11,654 nt of DNA, from the IMG/VR virus record IMGVR_UViG_3300031965_000543, positions 1 to 11,654 of that record. One strand, 5' to 3'. The notes below the pieces were generated by a model, which was not told the origin of the DNA, made no database searches, and saw nothing but the letters and a program-made list of their open reading frames with translations. Source of the stretch: a virus. Of the stretch, positions 1,638 through 11,654 are shown piece after piece (within the stretch, counting starts at the first letter, position 1; each line of letters opens with the position of its first letter). A program made the position numbers and the translations under genes.

Positions 1638-2735
1638 ATGCCAGAAACAAATATAGAAAACACCGTAGTAACTGATTTAACTAATGCCATTACTGATTTT
1701 TCAGTAGATCAAGAGACTACAGACGCTCCAGGATATGAAGAAGACTTTACATATCAAAATGAGAACTGGTCTAAACAACTAGGATATTATAAAAAAATAC
1801 CAGAGTTAAGAGCGTCTATAGACGCTATAGCAAATTGGACTGTGGGTAATGGTTACGAAGCAGATGAAATAACAACTTTAATTCTAGATAGAGTAAAGGG
1901 TAATGGTAAAGATATATTCAATACAATTTTAGAAAATCAAAGAAGGGTAGCAGAGATAGCAGGAGATAGTTTTGCAGAAATAATAACTAATGATGAAAAT
2001 ATTTTAATTAATCTAAAACCACTAGACCCAAGTACAATTAGAGTGCATTTCAATAGTAAAGGACAAATAAAAAAATATGTTCAAACTACTAAAGTAAAAG
2101 GAAAAAGCAAAGAGCATACATTCAAAGTAGGGGAAATATTTCACTTATCAAGAAATAGAACTGCGGACGAGGCTCATGGTATTAGTGTTGTTGATTCTGT
2201 AGAAGAAATAATATTAATGCGTAATGAAGCTATGACCGATTGGAAAAAAGTACTACATAGAAATGTAGTCCCATTAAGAATTATAGAGATAGATTCAGAT
2301 GATAATACAAAGATAGCGAGTATGAAAGCTGATTATCAGGAAGCAATTAGTAAAGGAGAAGTACTAATAATACCAAAGGGTAATGTAGAGATTAAAGATG
2401 GGGGTATAGCTCCTAACGCAACACTAAATCCTTTACCATGGATAGAACAACTAAATTCATATTATTATCAGGCAGTAGGAGTACCAGACATCATAGTTGG
2501 AGGTAGTAGGGCGTTAACAGAGGCTAGCGCAAAGATAGCATTATTAGCTTACGAAAGAACTATTAGAGCCAATCAATTAGATGTAGAGGAGCAAGTATTA
2601 TCTCAACTAAACTTAGAGATTAAATTACAATTCCCAGTGTCATTAATGAACGAATTATTATCAAGTGTACAACCACAAAAAGAACAGGCAGTAGAATCAA
2701 ATGATTTAACAACGGAGGTAGAAGGTAGAAAATGA
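1638..2735 (+). CDS. Portal protein
   Basis: 365-aa ORF in the head module. Portal-like blocks seen by eye: ELRASIDAIANWTVGNGY, GDSFAEII...LKPLDPSTIRV, IFHLSRNRTADEAHGISVVDSV, acidic C-terminal tail. Not search-verified. Confidence 0.7.
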   Translation: MPETNIENTVVTDLTNAITDFSVDQETTDAPGYEEDFTYQNENWSKQLGYYKKIPELRASIDAIANWTVGNGYEADEITTLILDRVKGNGKDIFNTILENQRRVAEIAGDSFAEIITNDENILINLKPLDPSTIRVHFNSKGQIKKYVQTTKVKGKSKEHTFKVGEIFHLSRNRTADEAHGISVVDSVEEIILMRNEAMTDWKKVLHRNVVPLRIIEIDSDDNTKIASMKADYQEAISKGEVLIIPKGNVEIKDGGIAPNATLNPLPWIEQLNSYYYQAVGVPDIIVGGSRALTEASAKIALLAYERTIRANQLDVEEQVLSQLNLEIKLQFPVSLMNELLSSVQPQKEQAVESNDLTTEVEGRK

Positions 2736-5291: not shown

Positions 5292-6191
5292 ATGGCAGAT
5301 ACAAGCGGACAAGCAGACATTAGAGGATTAGACGTAGATAAATTAGCAAAGGGATTTGCTGAAGAAGATTTAGTATTAAAGAATTTTTGTAATGTATCAT
5401 CTACATCTGCAAGGGAAATCAGATGGTATCAGAAGACAGCAGGATTTATAACAGGAACTACAACTTCGGGAATGACCTCAGAGTTAATAGCTTTAGGTGC
5501 TAATAAAGCTATAGCTAGTGTAGCTGAGCAATCATGGACTAGAAATACAAGTTATGTAAGACAATATTTTGTAGAGTCTCCAACTATTTCAAATGCAGAT
5601 ATCAAAGATACAGATATAGATATCTTAGCTGCTAATATAAGAGATTTAACAAGATCAGTAAATAATCAAGTTGATAAAAGAATTTATGATGTTATAACTG
5701 ATAATGTTTCTGGAACTCCTTTTGATGGGAGCACAGTTACTTCTAACGCTGCAACTGCAGACGGATGGGATGACACAGTTACAGGAGATCCTATTAAAGA
5801 TTTGATGTTAGCTAAAACAACAATAAGATTACAAAGTTATAATCCAGAAGGAGCAATATTATATATTCATCCTACAGAACATTCTAATTTATTACAATAT
5901 TTAATAAGTGTTAAAGGAAGTAGTATCCCTCAATTTTCTAGTCAAAAAGTAATGAGTGGAGTGGTTATGGAAATTCTAGGATTAAATGTAGCTGTGAGTG
6001 CTAACGCAACTACTGATTATGCTGTTGTATTTGTACCGAAAGTAGCGTGTACATGGAAACAATTTACTCCTATAACTGCAGTATCTATTAATGATCCAGG
6101 CATAGGAACTAAGATAAGAGTATGGGAAGAGGGAGAAGCAATCTTAACAGATCCTAATGCGGTCTGCGGAATAACTGATACGGTGGTATAA
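5292..6191 (+). CDS. Major capsid protein (HK97-fold candidate)
   Basis: 299-aa ORF in the canonical position after the scaffold-like and decoration-like genes. Size and sequence texture (ISNADIKDTDIDILAANIRDLTRSVNNQVDKRIY; C-terminal ILTDPNAVCGI) are consistent with phage capsid family proteins. Not search-verified. Confidence 0.7.
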   Translation: MADTSGQADIRGLDVDKLAKGFAEEDLVLKNFCNVSSTSAREIRWYQKTAGFITGTTTSGMTSELIALGANKAIASVAEQSWTRNTSYVRQYFVESPTISNADIKDTDIDILAANIRDLTRSVNNQVDKRIYDVITDNVSGTPFDGSTVTSNAATADGWDDTVTGDPIKDLMLAKTTIRLQSYNPEGAILYIHPTEHSNLLQYLISVKGSSIPQFSSQKVMSGVVMEILGLNVAVSANATTDYAVVFVPKVACTWKQFTPITAVSINDPGIGTKIRVWEEGEAILTDPNAVCGITDTVV

Positions 6192-6693: not shown

Positions 6694-7047
6694 ATGGCTT
6701 ACAACAAAACAAGTCATATTCTAAATAGATTAACAGGTAGAAATAAAGCCGTTAAACCTAAATTTGAAACAGAAACTAGAACACCTATAGGAACAGACTT
6801 ATATCTACCTAATAACTCAGGAGTTAAGAGATCTCTTCAAGAGAAAGATCTAAGTTTTAATTGTCTGGAATTAACTGGAAGTGGAGGCTCTGAAATTAAT
6901 AGCGATATAAATTTCAATGGAGATATTAAAGTAAATGATACTACAGCAGTATCTGGTTATTTCGATGATGGAGTTAACTTTAGAATAACAGTTGTCAAGG
7001 GCATTATAACAGCCATAGAGGATAGTTCTGGGGCGGGTCATTCTTAA
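6694..7047 (+). CDS. Hypothetical protein, possible tail/fibre component
   Basis: The track ORF starts at GTG 6685, but ATG 6694 (MAYNKTSH...) directly follows the upstream stop and matches the MA- start seen in many genes here. Its stop is 1 nt before the next gene. Function guessed from its position in front of the lectin-like protein. Confidence 0.6.
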   Translation: MAYNKTSHILNRLTGRNKAVKPKFETETRTPIGTDLYLPNNSGVKRSLQEKDLSFNCLELTGSGGSEINSDINFNGDIKVNDTTAVSGYFDDGVNFRITVVKGIITAIEDSSGAGHS

Positions 7048-8281: not shown

Positions 8282-8749
8282 ATGAAAAAAATTATAACAA
8301 AAATTAGTGCTATAGACAATACAAAAAAAGATAGAAATGGTAAGCCTTATTTAAGGATACAATTAGAAGAAGATAATTCTTGGCATAGCGTGTTCAGAGA
8401 AGGGCACAAAGTAGACGCAATTCAGAGTTTAAATAACAATACTAAGGTTGAAGTTACTTTAGAGCAGAATGGAAATTACATTAATATATTAGATATTTCT
8501 CCAATAATTGAAGAAGAGCTAGTAGTTAACCCTATAGAGCCAGAGAAAGAGTTTAAACCTATAGAGAATAAACCTTTATTTAGAAGACATGAAGATAAAG
8601 ACTATAATATGTGGCTTAGTACTAGGTTAAGCTATGCAAAGGATATATATTGTGAAGCTATGAAGCAAAACAACAATACGTATTCTATAGATCACTGCGT
8701 TAAGTTGATATTGCATGCAGAAGAGTTACTAAAAGAGAGGAGCTTATAA
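8282..8749 (+). CDS. Hypothetical protein; N-terminal beta-rich (possible OB-fold) domain plus C-terminal helical domain
   Basis: 155 aa with strong AGGAGG SD. The N-terminus (KISAIDNTKKDRNGKPYLRIQLEEDNSWHSVF...KVEVTLEQNGNYINILDI) looks like a small beta-barrel, so nucleic-acid binding is a guess only. Confidence 0.65.
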   Translation: MKKIITKISAIDNTKKDRNGKPYLRIQLEEDNSWHSVFREGHKVDAIQSLNNNTKVEVTLEQNGNYINILDISPIIEEELVVNPIEPEKEFKPIENKPLFRRHEDKDYNMWLSTRLSYAKDIYCEAMKQNNNTYSIDHCVKLILHAEELLKERSL

Positions 8750-8770: not shown

Positions 8771-9238
8771 ATGAAAAACAATTGTATAGATATACCAGAA
8801 TTAAACATAAGTGTAGAAAAAGAAGTCCATGATAAAGGAAAATCATGGGATGAGTTAGGTTTAGATTACAACAGAAAATACTTATTAACAGCAGAAGAGT
8901 GTATTTGGTTAGCTAATTCTAAATATGCTAAGATACTAAAAATGGATGGAAACTCTTCACAGGATGATTTCTTCATCCAACAGCCATTTAATAAGAATAA
9001 AGACTTTGACTATATCGCGGGGTTCTGCGCCTACTCTGGCGGGGCTAACCTCGATTGCGGCGGGGATTCGGCTTACTCGAATTCTGGGCTCGGGGTAAGA
9101 TTCAAAAAGAAGCTTTTAGGAAAAGCTTCACCAAAAGAAGCTTTTAGGAAAAGCTTCAAGGAAAGGGTGAAGGTTTGTGGTTTTGGGGTGACTCACCTCT
9201 TTTTTCCACGCCTCTTAGGCCTTCACCCCCTTAAATAA
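8771..9238 (+). CDS. Hypothetical protein; the 3' third is compositionally aberrant (GC-rich codons, then read-through of palindromic repeats and a hairpin+T6)
   Basis: AGGAGG SD and an AT-rich 5' two-thirds look like a normal gene. From ~9017 the codons switch to GCG/GGG/GGC/CTC/TCG (52/81 G+C by hand count). 9105-9158 is a 26-nt repeat translated in two different frames. The extent of the true CDS is uncertain. Confidence 0.5.
   Translation: MKNNCIDIPELNISVEKEVHDKGKSWDELGLDYNRKYLLTAEECIWLANSKYAKILKMDGNSSQDDFFIQQPFNKNKDFDYIAGFCAYSGGANLDCGGDSAYSNSGLGVRFKKKLLGKASPKEAFRKSFKERVKVCGFGVTHLFFPRLLGLHPLK
9105..9158. repeat. Tandem pair of palindrome family copies P4 (9109-9129) and P5 (9137-9157): GAAGCTTTT-AGG-AAAAGCTTC, within 26-nt direct repeats at a 28-bp period
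   Basis: aaaagaagcttttaggaaaagcttca at 9105-9130 and 9133-9158, identical. Each contains perfect 9-bp inverted arms. Confidence 0.9.
9165..9228 (+). other. GC-rich long stem-loop: GGGTGAAGG (9165-9173) pairs with CCTTCACCC (9220-9228); inner GTGG/CCAC pairing
   Basis: Reverse-complement pairs checked by hand. The element encloses the hairpin+T6 at 9185-9205. Confidence 0.5.
9185..9205 (+). terminator. Intrinsic-terminator-like hairpin GGGGTG-act-CACCTC followed by T6
   Basis: 6-bp stem (one G-T pair) at 9185-9199 and TTTTTT at 9200-9205. It lies ~30 nt before the stop codon of ORF 8771..9238, which is atypical. Confidence 0.35.
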
Positions 9239-9256
9239 GCTTTTAAGAAAAGATTC
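9236..9256. promoter_or_regulatory. Palindrome family copy P6: TAAGCTTTT-AAG-AAAAGATTC (7/9 arm pairs; same AAAAGATT variant arm as P2)
   Basis: Read directly. Its first TAA is the stop codon of 8771..9238. Confidence 0.7.
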
Positions 9257-9324
9257 ATATGAGCGTTACGATAACGTATTCAAAGGAACAAGCACTATGC
9301 CAACATTTAAATACTTTAAAATAT

Positions 9325-9351
9325 AAATTCACATAGTGAATTTACATAGTG
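9325..9351. promoter_or_regulatory. Inverted repeat AAATTCAC-ata-GTGAATTT overlapping a direct repeat of ACATAGTG (9331-9338 and 9344-9351)
   Basis: Read directly. Operator-like architecture in the ORF-free region. Confidence 0.6.
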
Positions 9352-9390
9352 CCTAATTCTCGACTAGTTCTTAAGTACTTTGAATATAGA

Positions 9391-9420
9391 GGGGTTTTAC
9401 GGGGTTTTAGGTGTTTTAGT
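9391..9420. repeat. Three 10-bp phased tandem repeats GGGGTTTTAC / GGGGTTTTAG / GTGTTTTAGT
   Basis: Read directly. T4 tracts are phased at one helical turn, giving iteron-like or bent-DNA character. Confidence 0.85.
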
Positions 9421-9440
9421 ACACGGGTATGGTAATAACA

Positions 9441-9461
9441 GAAACTTTTAGAAAAAGTTTC
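9441..9461. promoter_or_regulatory. Palindrome family copy P7: GAAACTTTT-AGA-AAAAGTTTC (perfect 9-bp arms, same A:T variant as P1)
   Basis: Read directly. It immediately precedes the GC-rich hairpin cluster. Confidence 0.8.
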
Positions 9462-9616
9462 ACTGGCTCGTAGCGTTGGGACGCTACTTCGCTGTGCTAT
9501 GTGGCGAGGATTCACCTCAAGCTCCTCTCCTCGCAGTAGCCCCCCCGCTCTCGCTGCCCCCCGCTGGGGGGCCAGACACTTGGCGAGTAGCTTGCCACTA
9601 CTCGCGGAACTAACCA
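9462..9616. ncRNA. GC-rich cluster of four consecutive perfect hairpins: candidate structured ncRNA or cis-acting origin/packaging element (strand undetermined)
   Basis: Four hairpins: 9470-9487 (GTAGCGT/tggg/ACGCTAC), 9504-9534 (GCGAGGA...TCCTCGC), 9556-9572 (GCCCCCC/gct/GGGGGGC), 9583-9605 (GCGAGTAG/cttgcca/CTACTCGC). 43/60 G+C at 9541-9600 versus 17/60 in a typical coding line. Only low-complexity ORFs overlap it. Confidence 0.35.
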
Positions 9617-9662
9617 ACCCCACCCACCCACCACATCCCACCGCCCACCCACCCACCCACCC
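9617..9662 (-). repeat. (CCCA)n on + strand / (GGGT)n on - strand: G-quadruplex / i-motif-forming tract
   Basis: + strand: accccacccacccaccacatcccaccgcccacccacccacccaccc. The minus strand of 9644-9662 reads GGGTGGGTGGGTGGGTGGG, five G3 runs with 1-nt loops. Confidence 0.85.
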
Positions 9663-9722
9663 TAATGTTTATAATATAATGAGTCTTAATAGGTTTTTTT
9701 TGTGTGTTATCAGGAGTTAACA

Positions 9723-9734
9723 GAAAAATTTTTC
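9723..9734. repeat. Perfect A5/T5 palindrome GAAAAATTTTTC
   Basis: Read directly. A nearby hairpin ATAGGC-tttttatg-GCCTAT lies at 9742-9761. Confidence 0.7.
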
Positions 9735-9766
9735 ATATTTTATAGGCTTTTTATGGCCTATTTCGT

Positions 9767-9829
9767 AATCTCCATAGGAAAAGTAGGTTCTGGAGTATAT
9801 AGAAATCTCCATAGGAAGCGAAGGTTCTG
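9767..9829. repeat. Two 26-bp direct repeats at a 37-bp period (AATCTCCATAGGAA + AGGTTCTG core)
   Basis: 9767-9792 is aatctccataggaaaagtaggttctg. 9804-9829 is aatctccataggaagcgaaggttctg. The first 14 nt and the last 8 nt are identical. Confidence 0.85.
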
Positions 9830-9926
9830 TGATAGGTAGAGAGTCTGTAGTATCAAAATAGGTGTTTTCGGGTAACCTACGTTTCCAGTGGAGAAATATT
9901 GGTTTAACAATACATACCTATATATA

Positions 9927-9940
9927 TACTTACGTAAGTA
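9927..9940. promoter_or_regulatory. Perfect 14-bp palindrome TACTTACGTAAGTA
   Basis: Reverse complement checked by hand. It shares GTAAGTAC (9934-9941) with a second copy at 9981-9988. Confidence 0.8.
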
Positions 9941-9946
9941 CAAGTA

Positions 9947-9969
9947 TAGTAGTAGTAGTAGTAGTAGTA
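9947..9969. repeat. Trinucleotide microsatellite (TAG)7 plus TA
   Basis: tagtagtagtagtagtagtagta read directly. It lies ~40 nt upstream of the start codon at 10010. Confidence 0.95.
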
Positions 9970-9985
9970 ATTTAATAAGTGTAAG

Positions 9986-9995
9986 TACGTACGTA
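9986..9995. promoter_or_regulatory. Perfect 10-bp palindrome TACGTACGTA abutting the SD of gene 10010..10204
   Basis: Read directly. GGAGG at 10000-10004 follows, then a 5-nt spacer and ATG 10010. Confidence 0.75.
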
Positions 9996-10009
9996 GGATG
10001 GAGGTTAAA

Positions 10010-10204: not shown

Positions 10205-10428
10205 ATAATACTAGACTAGAAAAATGGGGACATACTTTAATAATGAAAAATCCCCCTAAAAGATGTTCAAAATGTGGAATAAATTTAGTACCACCTTTTC
10301 AATTTTGTAAAGAATTTGAAAAAGGATTCTGTGAAAATTGTGAAAAGGGAACATCTAAAAGACTATGTTATAGTATGGAAGAAGAACATGAACACTTTAA
10401 CATCATAAAAATAGAAGATGAATCTTGA
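10201..10428 (+). CDS. Zinc-ribbon protein (CxxC...CxxC)
   Basis: The in-frame ATG 10201 overlaps the upstream stop as ATGA, with AGAGG 8 nt upstream (the track start at 10177 is less likely). Motifs CSKCG and CENCEKG. Confidence 0.6.
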   Translation: MNNTRLEKWGHTLIMKNPPKRCSKCGINLVPPFQFCKEFEKGFCENCEKGTSKRLCYSMEEEHEHFNIIKIEDES

Positions 10429-11650
10429 TAAATGGCAAGAAGAAGTACTAGCTACAAAGGGCAACATTTGCCTACGATCTGGTAGACAAGTAGGAAAATC
10501 TACTATTATAGGTTTGAAAGCAGCTCAATATGCTTTAGAAACTCCTGATAAACTTATTATGGTTATATCTAAGACAGAAAGACAAGCAGGACTACTATTT
10601 GCTAAAATTCTTAGAAATATTAATAATATTGATAGAAAACAAATAGAAAAGGGAAAATTAAGACCTACAAAACATCTTATTAACTTAAAGAACAAATCTC
10701 AAATACATTGCCTTCCAGCGGGTGATACGGGCTATGGGATTATGGGATTTACAATTGATCTACTAATTGCTGATGAAGCAGCATTCATCCCTGAAGAAGT
10801 TTGGAATAGTGTAATACCAGCTTTAGCAGTTACAGGGGGAGATATTTGGCTATTATCAACACCATTTGTTAAAAAAGGATATTATTATAATTGTTTTTCA
10901 GATCCTACCTTTACTTCATTCCATACAAGCAGCGAAGATTGTCCTAGAATATCAAAAGAATTCTTAGAACACAAAAGAAATACAATTACTAAAGCCCAAT
11001 ATGCACAGATGTATTTAGGTAAGTTTGTAGATGAAGTAAGACAATTCTTTTCTGATGAACTAATAAGAAGAACTTGTACCCTAAAAAGAAGAACTAAAAT
11101 TGGAGTAGGAGATTATGGCCTAGGTTGTGATGTAGCTAGAATGGATAGAGATGAATTTACTTATGAAATTATAGAAAGAATAAGATCAGATTATTTAGAA
11201 CAAGTAGAAAATATAATAACTAAAGACATTCCCCTACCAGAAAGTACCAGAAGAATTTTACACCTAAACCAGATATATGATTTTAAGAAAATATACATAG
11301 ATTCCGGAGGGATGGGGATTGCAGTTTGTGATATGTTAAAAGAGATCCCAGATATGAAATATAAAGTAGTTGAAATAAATAATGCACAGAGAATTTATGA
11401 TAAAGAAGAAAGAAAGAAGAAACTCATAAAGGAAGATCTTTACAATCATTTAAAGTCATTAATGGAAAATAGAAAAATAAAATTGTTAGATGATGATGAA
11501 GTAAAAGCTTCTCTTAAAGGTATACAAGCAGAGCACCACCCAGAGACAGGAAGACTAAAGATATATGGTAATGATAGTCATGTAGCCGAAGGACTAATAA
11601 GAGCCGCACAAATAAGTAAAGAAAAAAGCTTAAATATGTGGATACGCTAA
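10418..11650 (+). CDS. terL: Terminase large subunit
   Basis: 410 aa. Walker A-like RSGRQVGKST, Walker B LLIADEAAF, coupling motif LLSTP. RNase-H-like nuclease half with GCDVARMDRDEF, IYIDSGGMGIAV and GNDSHVAEGLIRA. Confidence 0.9.
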   Translation: MNLDKWQEEVLATKGNICLRSGRQVGKSTIIGLKAAQYALETPDKLIMVISKTERQAGLLFAKILRNINNIDRKQIEKGKLRPTKHLINLKNKSQIHCLPAGDTGYGIMGFTIDLLIADEAAFIPEEVWNSVIPALAVTGGDIWLLSTPFVKKGYYYNCFSDPTFTSFHTSSEDCPRISKEFLEHKRNTITKAQYAQMYLGKFVDEVRQFFSDELIRRTCTLKRRTKIGVGDYGLGCDVARMDRDEFTYEIIERIRSDYLEQVENIITKDIPLPESTRRILHLNQIYDFKKIYIDSGGMGIAVCDMLKEIPDMKYKVVEINNAQRIYDKEERKKKLIKEDLYNHLKSLMENRKIKLLDDDEVKASLKGIQAEHHPETGRLKIYGNDSHVAEGLIRAAQISKEKSLNMWIR

Positions 11651-11654
11651 GATA
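11530..11654. repeat. Terminal direct repeat, copy 2 (exact duplicate of 1-125)
   Basis: Same comparison as copy 1. The repeat lies inside the TerL coding sequence plus 4 nt past its stop codon. Confidence 0.95.

Follow-up and report, generated by a model that had tools for sequence, protein, structure and literature searches.

What is the role of a C-run tract that lies in the only large non-coding region of a small virus genome? The DNA analysed here (the window, the whole stretch of 11,654 nt) carries at positions 9617-9662 the sequence ACCCCACCCACCCACCACATCCCACCGCCCACCCACCCACCCACCC, made up of 33 C, 11 A, 1 T and 1 G, that is, 72% C and 2% G over 46 nt. A first-pass annotation had read it either as a G-quadruplex (G4)/i-motif sequence or as a Rho utilisation (rut) site at the end of the + strand transcription unit. 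The strings on which that annotation relied are all found where it placed them: the tract itself, the minus strand of 9644-9662 and of 9618-9632 (the latter reading GGTGGGTGGGTGGGG), and the AT-rich tttataatataat at 9668-9680.

The tract exists and lies far beyond chance. Tandem Repeats Finder describes a CCCA array at 9619-9662 with a period of 4 and 10.8 copies. The G4Hunter score of the tract, proposed as a check by the first-pass annotation, is -2.16 (25-nt window), the extreme value of the whole window, whose minus strand has no canonical four-run motif outside the tract. Allowing at most one mismatch, CCCACCCACCC gives 5 matches against 0.02 expected, which none of 200 shuffles equalled, in agreement with the view that such a tract is very unlikely by chance; the G+C content, put earlier at ~30%, measures 33.2%. 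An artefact of assembly, which had been raised as a possible refutation, is unlikely since the 759-nt non-coding stretch including the tract is 99.87% identical in L023, an independent ENA assembly of the same genome (relatives and their contigs are denoted here by L and a number), where the tract is unchanged.

Because its first and last 125 nt coincide (1-125 identical to 11530-11654), the window represents a complete genome that maps as a circle of 11,529 bp, and this genome sits at the lower limit of tailed-virus sizes, reported to be 11.6 kb (bioRxiv 10.1101/2025.06.18.659913). Every gene is on the + strand. In addition to the large terminase subunit (TerL), portal and major capsid protein genes listed in Table 1, the window encodes a cement protein, an SNase-type nuclease and small unknown proteins; within it we recognised no replication genes, no tail genes and no small terminase subunit. 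The sole large non-coding region, 9239-9997, has a G+C content of 0.41-0.44, against 0.33 for the genome. About 500 nt upstream of this region, the gene at 8282-8749 encodes a product of 155 aa with scarcely any sequence relatives, whose N-terminus is predicted to be a β-barrel of OB-fold topology (single-sequence AlphaFold model, N-terminal pLDDT ~80); the best structural matches of the model are ssDNA-binding proteins (baculovirus LEF-3, bacterial and mitochondrial SSBs), at only E ~1e-3.

Metagenomes contain more than 1,698 relatives of the capsid protein, the longest contigs being of ~11-13 kb, and the genomes of the family are of ~11.5-12.5 kb, circularly mapping and HK97-type. Terminal overlaps of like kind are present in many related contigs, and one contig of 24 kb is a head-to-tail dimer. 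No family contigs were found inside cellular genomes, and those binned in MAGs are few, short and inconsistent in their taxa. The nearest database relatives are 74% identical in TerL and 81% in the capsid protein, a megablast search of the whole window against isolate phages gave no match, and our literature searches found no published description of the family or of its non-coding region.

Table 1. Features of the window that bear on the C-run tract (positions are those of the 11,654-nt window)
Feature	Position	Strand	Sequence or remark
Portal protein	1638-2735	+	gene
HK97-type major capsid protein	5292-6191	+	gene
(AGGGGTTTT)x3	9390-9419	+	G-runs on + strand, beyond the hairpin cluster as seen from the C tract
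GC-rich hairpin cluster, left of tract	9441-9605		9441-9461, 9470-9487, 9504-9534, 9556-9572, 9583-9605
C-run tract	9617-9662	+	imperfect (CCCA)n, nine C3-4 runs, one G
G4 unit A (putative)	9618-9639	-	GGGATGTGGTGGGTGGGTGGGG; includes GTGGTGGGTGGGTGGG, 16/17 bases of T30177
G4 unit B (putative)	9644-9662	-	GGGTGGGTGGGTGGGTGGG; three-layer G4 in the MFE fold with G4 term
TATA-like TTTATAATATAAT, then GAGTCTTAAT	9668-9690	+	GAGTCTTAAT kept in L048, L092
T8, then GTGTGT	9694-9707	+	T/GT-rich element after the tract in a subset of relatives
CAGGAGTTAACAGAAAAATTTTTCATA with palindrome GAAAAATTTTTC	9711-9737	+	motif CCACAGAAAAATTTTT recurs in many relatives
ORB-like repeat 1	9769-9789	+	TCTCCATAGGAAAAGTAGGTT
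ORB-like repeat 2	9806-9826	+	TCTCCATAGGAAGCGAAGGTT
ORB-like repeat 3, inverted	9874-9894	-	TCTCCACTGGAAACGTAGGTT; 11/14 match to euryarchaeal mini-ORB GTTCCAGTGGAAAC
AT-rich stretch, (TA)n + (AGT)9	9898-9997	.	candidate duplex-unwinding element
Large terminase subunit (TerL)	10418-11650	+	gene

The placement described in the first-pass annotation holds: the tract comes after the last + strand gene and has the hairpin cluster on one side and AT-rich sequence on the other. The hairpin at 9504-9534, with the loop ATTCACCTCA..CTCCTCT, is common to the window, L048 (~6980-7010), L092 (~1460-1490) and L049 (~1165-1200), and an IMG/VR search with the loop sequence ATTCACCTCANNCTCCTCT returned a single family member, a duplicate of L092. 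The loop resembles the anti-Shine-Dalgarno end of 16S rRNA (UCACCUCC), and its opposite strand is a strong Shine-Dalgarno sequence. A coding reading of the tract was rejected: the ORF 9499-9720, rich in PTHP, has a GC3 of 0.55, compared with 0.16 for the core genes, lacks a Shine-Dalgarno sequence and is matched at the protein level by none of the relatives.

Several other repeats surround the tract. A 21-nt palindrome, GAARCTTTTAGRAAAAGYTTC, is present in four copies (9109-9129, 9137-9157, 9237-9256 and 9441-9461), the first two within a 28-nt tandem repeat that overlaps the 3' end of ORF 8771-9238; these palindromes may form hairpins or may be bound by a dimeric protein. A different palindrome of ~20 bp, GTTATTCGGTATACCGAATAAC, is conserved in the non-coding regions of L005, L012, L016, L030, L079 and L224, most of which do not have the palindromes of the window, and could serve as an alternative site for protein binding. 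The motif CC(C)ACAGAAAAATTTTT, an A5T5 palindrome, is found in the window (9711-9737), L016 (3183-3200), L025 (2341-2356) and L140 (~1955-1975); it lies upstream of the ORBs in the window and L140 and abuts the TerL start codon in L016 and L025, and because of this placement a simple BRE/TATA promoter is a poor fit. The G-runs at 9390-9419 recall the G4T4 telomere repeats of ciliates and are on the strand opposite to the G-runs of the tract; a telomere-like reading was set aside, as the genome maps as a circle and the polarity is unlike that of 3' G-rich ends.

Comparison with related contigs, which the first-pass annotation had suggested, shows that the element is common in the family, not universal. 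In the 2.3 kb upstream of TerL of 52 non-redundant relatives, IMG/VR relatives added, a C-type G4Hunter window (<= -1.7) occurs in 23 (~44%) and a G-type window (>= +1.7) in 4, and the C-run tracts reappear with unchanged strand and position over TerL identities of 33-74%. When four-run motifs with loops of up to 12 nt are counted, the upstream regions (66 kb) contain 15 of the C type and 3 of the G type, and coding sequence (107 kb) none of the C type and 1 of the G type. In the complete genomes compared (window, L012, L016, L019, L030, L064, L079, L092) TerL lies 0.7-1.75 kb downstream of the genome-wide peak of C minus G (40-nt window), which is located in the non-coding region. Only about one third of the relatives have a canonical four-run G4 motif, and the conserved property may be C-richness rather than G4 competence. 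The tract of the window is the most regular example of this strand-fixed element, with C-runs on the gene strand and G-runs on the complement.

Close look-alikes are present in L033 (CCCACCACCCACCCCACCCACCC; TerL 33% identical), L048 (ACCCACCCACCCACCC), L051, L098, L013 and L168. Of 2.9 million IMG/VR contigs, only 27 contain the exact 19-mer CCCACCCACCCACCCACCC; among them is L140, which belongs to the family and whose TerL is 53% identical. The tract of L140 precedes TerL by ~700 nt, and the elements follow one another as they do in the window: hairpins, C tract, GT/T-rich stretch, CCACAAATTTTTAAAATA, two ORBs, (TA)n(GA)n, a small gene and finally TerL. L224 and L201 carry the tract on the + strand beside ORBs; to the left of their non-coding region the genes are encoded on the minus strand. 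Against all family loci, blastn with the non-coding region found L023 only, the regions being too divergent to align.

Strand bias extends to other short motifs of the non-coding regions of relatives, where GCTCCGC outnumbers GCGGAGC 27:1 and GCTTCGC outnumbers GCGAAGC 12:1. Motifs of the CGCTC/GCTCCGC kind were seen in L026 (400-560 and 780-900), L016, L012, L009, L025 and L079, and L026 carries long (CGCTC)n-like arrays. Read on the minus strand, which is also that of the G-runs, GCTCCGC and GCTTCGC are GC-GNA-GC units, and such units form unusually stable DNA mini-hairpins. The mismatches of imperfect hairpins, 7 G.T and 6 A.C, favour neither strand.

The minus strand of the tract holds (GGGT)4GGG plus GTGGTGGGTGGGTGGGG. 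With a canonical intramolecular G4 motif taken as at least four runs of at least three G on one strand and loops of 1-7 nt, seven overlapping matches are found on the minus strand at 9618-9662. Folding of the minus strand of 9597-9682 with the G4 term of ViennaRNA predicts two tandem three-layer G4s at -58.7 kcal/mol, against -12.6 kcal/mol for the same strand without that term, and the + strand folds to only -3.5 kcal/mol. For the i-motif the case is different: runs of C3 joined by loops of one nucleotide form i-motifs poorly at neutral pH, a near-neutral i-motif usually needing at least five C per run and adequate loops, and the tract has runs of C3-C4 with loops of 1 nt, so this half of the earlier proposal is weak. 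For the G4 half, the four-run motifs, the fold with the G4 term and the likeness to T30177 (GTGGTGGGTGGGTGGGT), which adopts a propeller-type parallel G4 in K+ (PMC3203613), make a strong G4-forming capacity of the minus strand plausible at the sequence level. The sole four-run G motif on the + strand of the window, GGGTGATACGGGCTATGGGATTATGGG at 10720-10746, is internal to the terminase gene.

To the right of the tract, several ORB-type repeats, one of them inverted, stand next to an AT-rich element, which is the layout of an archaeal-type origin. The string TCTCCAYWGGAARNGWAGGTT occurs 3 times in the window with 0 expected, and the euryarchaeal consensus GTTCCAGTGGAAAC, allowing at most three mismatches, has 3 matches against 0.47 expected. 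The published euryarchaeal ORB consensus is GTTCCAGTGGAAAC-AAA----GGGGG (PMC1868953), and Pyrococcus ORB sequences (PMC1904270) were also used for comparison with the repeats of the window. A single base in ORB-like repeat 2 distinguishes the two assemblies of this genome, GGAAGCGAAGG (9808-9826) versus GGAAGCGGAGG (L023 4557-4575). Across the family, mini-ORBs with at most two mismatches number 8 in 111.6 kb of upstream regions versus 1 in 105 kb of coding sequence; exact 14/14 matches are present in L051 and L160, and ORBs are recognisable in only ~10 of the first 35 relatives. Equivalents of the AT-rich stretch, (TA)n/(GA)n/(AGT)n, are found in L140, L016 and L213, and the order tract, ORBs, AT-rich stretch, small genes, TerL is shared by the window, L140, L224 and L012. 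The nearest ORB of the window is ~105 nt to the right of the tract. If an ORB with a G-string is defined as a GTTCCAGTGGAAAC-like dyad followed within ~10 nt by a G-run on the same strand, L012 has one, its G-runs running straight on from an ORB (GTTCCATAGGAAATCAAGGTGGGGGTTAGGGGGTG), and in the window no mini-ORB dyad adjoins the tract.

Sequence comparisons indicate that the host is probably an archaeon, because of the ORB-type repeats and of two further observations. An Rfam search of 12 relatives at the gathering threshold returned nothing except a tRNA in L018, a 90-nt tRNA-Thr(GGT) at 10949-11038 in the non-coding region, with an insertion of ~16 nt in the anticodon loop that we take to be an intron of archaeal type. 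Among 50,697 isolate phage records, the best TerL match is the haloarchaeal Halogranum tailed virus 1 (30.6% identity, E = 5e-43). Archaea are not known to have Rho and, the host being probably archaeal, Rho is therefore not expected here.

Our preferred reading, to which we give a probability of about 0.4, is that the tract could be a DNA-level accessory element of a viral replication origin of archaeal type. What we say about function is inferred from position, composition, comparative recurrence and published precedent. The non-coding region would be an archaeal-type origin with host Orc1/Cdc6 as the initiator, and the tract would be the counterpart of the ORB G-string and of the G-rich enhancer repeat of Haloarcula hispanica oriC1, whose ORBs have essential G-strings at their ends and are adjoined by a distinct G-rich inverted repeat (GGGGAGGGGG / CCCCCTCCCC) that boosts initiation (PMC3936714); haloarchaeal G-runs of this kind have been described as G4-prone (PMC7565180). 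The tract might act in one of two ways: it might widen the area that the initiator or a regulator can contact, or, after unwinding of the origin flank, the minus strand might fold into two tandem parallel G4s that would keep the flank open or label that strand. Since in L224 and L201 the tract stands beside ORBs with the left-hand genes on the minus strand, its position is tied to the origin side and not to the upstream operon. Against the origin reading, the tract of the window is no canonical ORB G-string, as no dyad abuts it, and the extended C>G asymmetry exemplified by the arrays of L026 would be unexpected for a purely double-stranded protein-binding site; this asymmetry hints at a single-stranded or direction-dependent process.

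Other explanations were weighed against the origin reading, and we take them in falling order of probability. The first, which we consider unlikely, is an RNA 3'-end element, in which unstructured C-rich RNA after the hairpins would aid 3'-end formation, stability or processing together with the U8. Its position after the last + strand gene speaks for it, as do the unpaired state of the tract in + strand folds of the window and most relatives, the T8 at 9694-9701, 32 nt downstream, which with the following GTGTGT is a possible archaeal U-tract terminator, the occurrence of strong tracts mostly where the left-hand genes are co-directional, and the 10:3 ratio of CTTCGG to CCGAAG on the + strand. 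However, no + strand gene reads into the tract of L224 and L201, and the hairpin-stem mismatches favour no strand. A run of T6 or longer follows within 160 nt in only 3 of the 23 relatives, for which reason a U-run terminator was rejected as a general companion of the tract. Archaeal factor-dependent terminators are U-rich, FttA/aCPSF1 choosing U-rich and not C-rich RNA (PMC11616081, PMC8716108). A scan for bacterial promoters and terminators gave nothing informative at the tract.

Improbable too is a pac or cos function, with the tract as part of the DNA-packaging recognition site of the terminase. TerL and its preceding small genes always lie 0.2-1.7 kb downstream of the tract, which stands where cos and pac are classically found, many non-circular family contigs end within the non-coding region, and CCACAGAAAAATTTTT directly precedes TerL in L016 and L025. 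The contig ends, however, could equally well result from repeats and hairpins, which hamper assembly; furthermore, a small terminase subunit was not recognised, the sequence and length of the tract are independent of TerL similarity, and in L012 and L224 its position is tied to the ORBs.

A neutral microsatellite, arising by replication slippage in a permissive non-coding region, has low odds. It would account for an interrupted repeat of period 4, for strong tracts being present in less than half of the relatives and for the lack of conservation in sequence detail. It would not account for the recurrence of strand and position over the range of TerL identities given above, for the ratio of C-type four-run motifs between upstream regions and coding sequence (15 to 0), or for the return of the rare 19-mer in the distant L140.

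We think it quite improbable that the tract is the tail of a structured ncRNA, encoded on either strand of a GC-rich island at 9441-9662 and possibly bearing anti-Shine-Dalgarno-like loops. The island has ~60% G+C against 33% for the genome and several stable hairpins, a conserved loop, AUUCACCUCA..CUCCUCU, is shared by the window, L048, L092 and L049, and the z-score of the minus-strand fold is -2.55. That of the + strand, on the other hand, is only -1.2, a search of the window against Rfam gave no match at a threshold as permissive as E = 1, divergence of the regions prevents their alignment and a promoter/terminator pair is not established. A tRNA/tmRNA scan of the window also found nothing.

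Slimmer still are the chances of R-loop or G-loop priming, for which ColE1 RNA II and mitochondrial CSB II are parallels: a leftward G-rich transcript, started from the AT-rich sequence and hybridised to the C-rich template, would prime DNA synthesis. The tract is near the origin, and TATA-like sequences stand 5-17 nt upstream of the minus-strand G-runs in the window, L033, L043, L013 and L016. The minus-strand transcription that this requires is a supposition, though, the G-runs sit where an archaeal promoter must melt, and the ORBs already offer an initiator-dependent route. Finally, the rut site of a bacterial Rho-dependent terminator, as first proposed for the tract, is very improbable: like rut sites, the tract would give C-rich, G-poor RNA with no predicted structure past the last gene of an operon, but at 46 nt it is shorter than the usual 70-80 nt (PMC8501993), its probable archaeal host is not expected to have Rho, and in L224 and L201, where the flanking genes diverge, it persists with no co-directional gene before it.

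A further possibility, rather doubtful, builds on the origin reading: the minus strand of the origin flank, folding once it is single-stranded, might be a strand-specific signal for initiation or priming through which a virus lacking replication genes would recruit the archaeal replisome of the host. The folds would be two tandem parallel G4s in the window and GC-GNA-GC mini-hairpins in many relatives. We keep it as possible because the G-runs and the GC-GNA-GC units are both on the minus strand. If true, it would represent a natural origin element dependent on G4s or mini-hairpins in an archaeal virus.

The origin reading matters beyond this locus, since G-rich elements near the ORBs of haloarchaeal chromosomal origins are essential or stimulatory through a mechanism that is not understood. 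The tract is an extreme, almost synthetic-looking version of such an element, located near ORB-type repeats in a virus of 11.5 kb that has no recognised replication protein, and similar tracts are present across a very large, uncultured and globally distributed virus family. It would thus offer a compact natural system in which to ask whether origin G-runs serve as contact sites in the duplex or as folded G4s, and in what way a minimal virus borrows the Orc1/Cdc6 machinery of its host. The tract calls for archaeal, not bacterial, rules of interpretation.

The OGRE of metazoan origins and the mitochondrial CSB II have strand-specific, G4-capable G-runs beside a replication start, with an ORC-type or transcription-coupled mechanism; the tract is likewise strand-specific and G4-capable, while the domain of life and the machinery differ. 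If the minus strand does fold when single-stranded, its functional likeness would be to mitochondrial OriL/CSB II and to the single-strand initiation signals of bacteriophages. With the oligonucleotides (GGGT)4 and T30177 (PMC3203613) it shares a near-identical pattern of G3 runs and single T, in two tandem units; these oligonucleotides are free single strands in K+, whereas the tract is normally duplex and could fold only after unwinding or after transcription from the minus strand. The closest parallel to our preferred reading is H. hispanica oriC1 (PMC3936714; PMC1868953), which also has a G/C-run element near ORBs and an AT-rich unwinding region, and with whose elements the tract would share an action in cis and an orientation fixed relative to the ORBs. 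Unlike those elements, the tract is 46 nt long with a tetranucleotide periodicity, is separated from the nearest ORB by ~105 nt, lacks a dyad partner within the ORB pair, and belongs to a virus genome of 33% G+C instead of a haloarchaeal chromosome.
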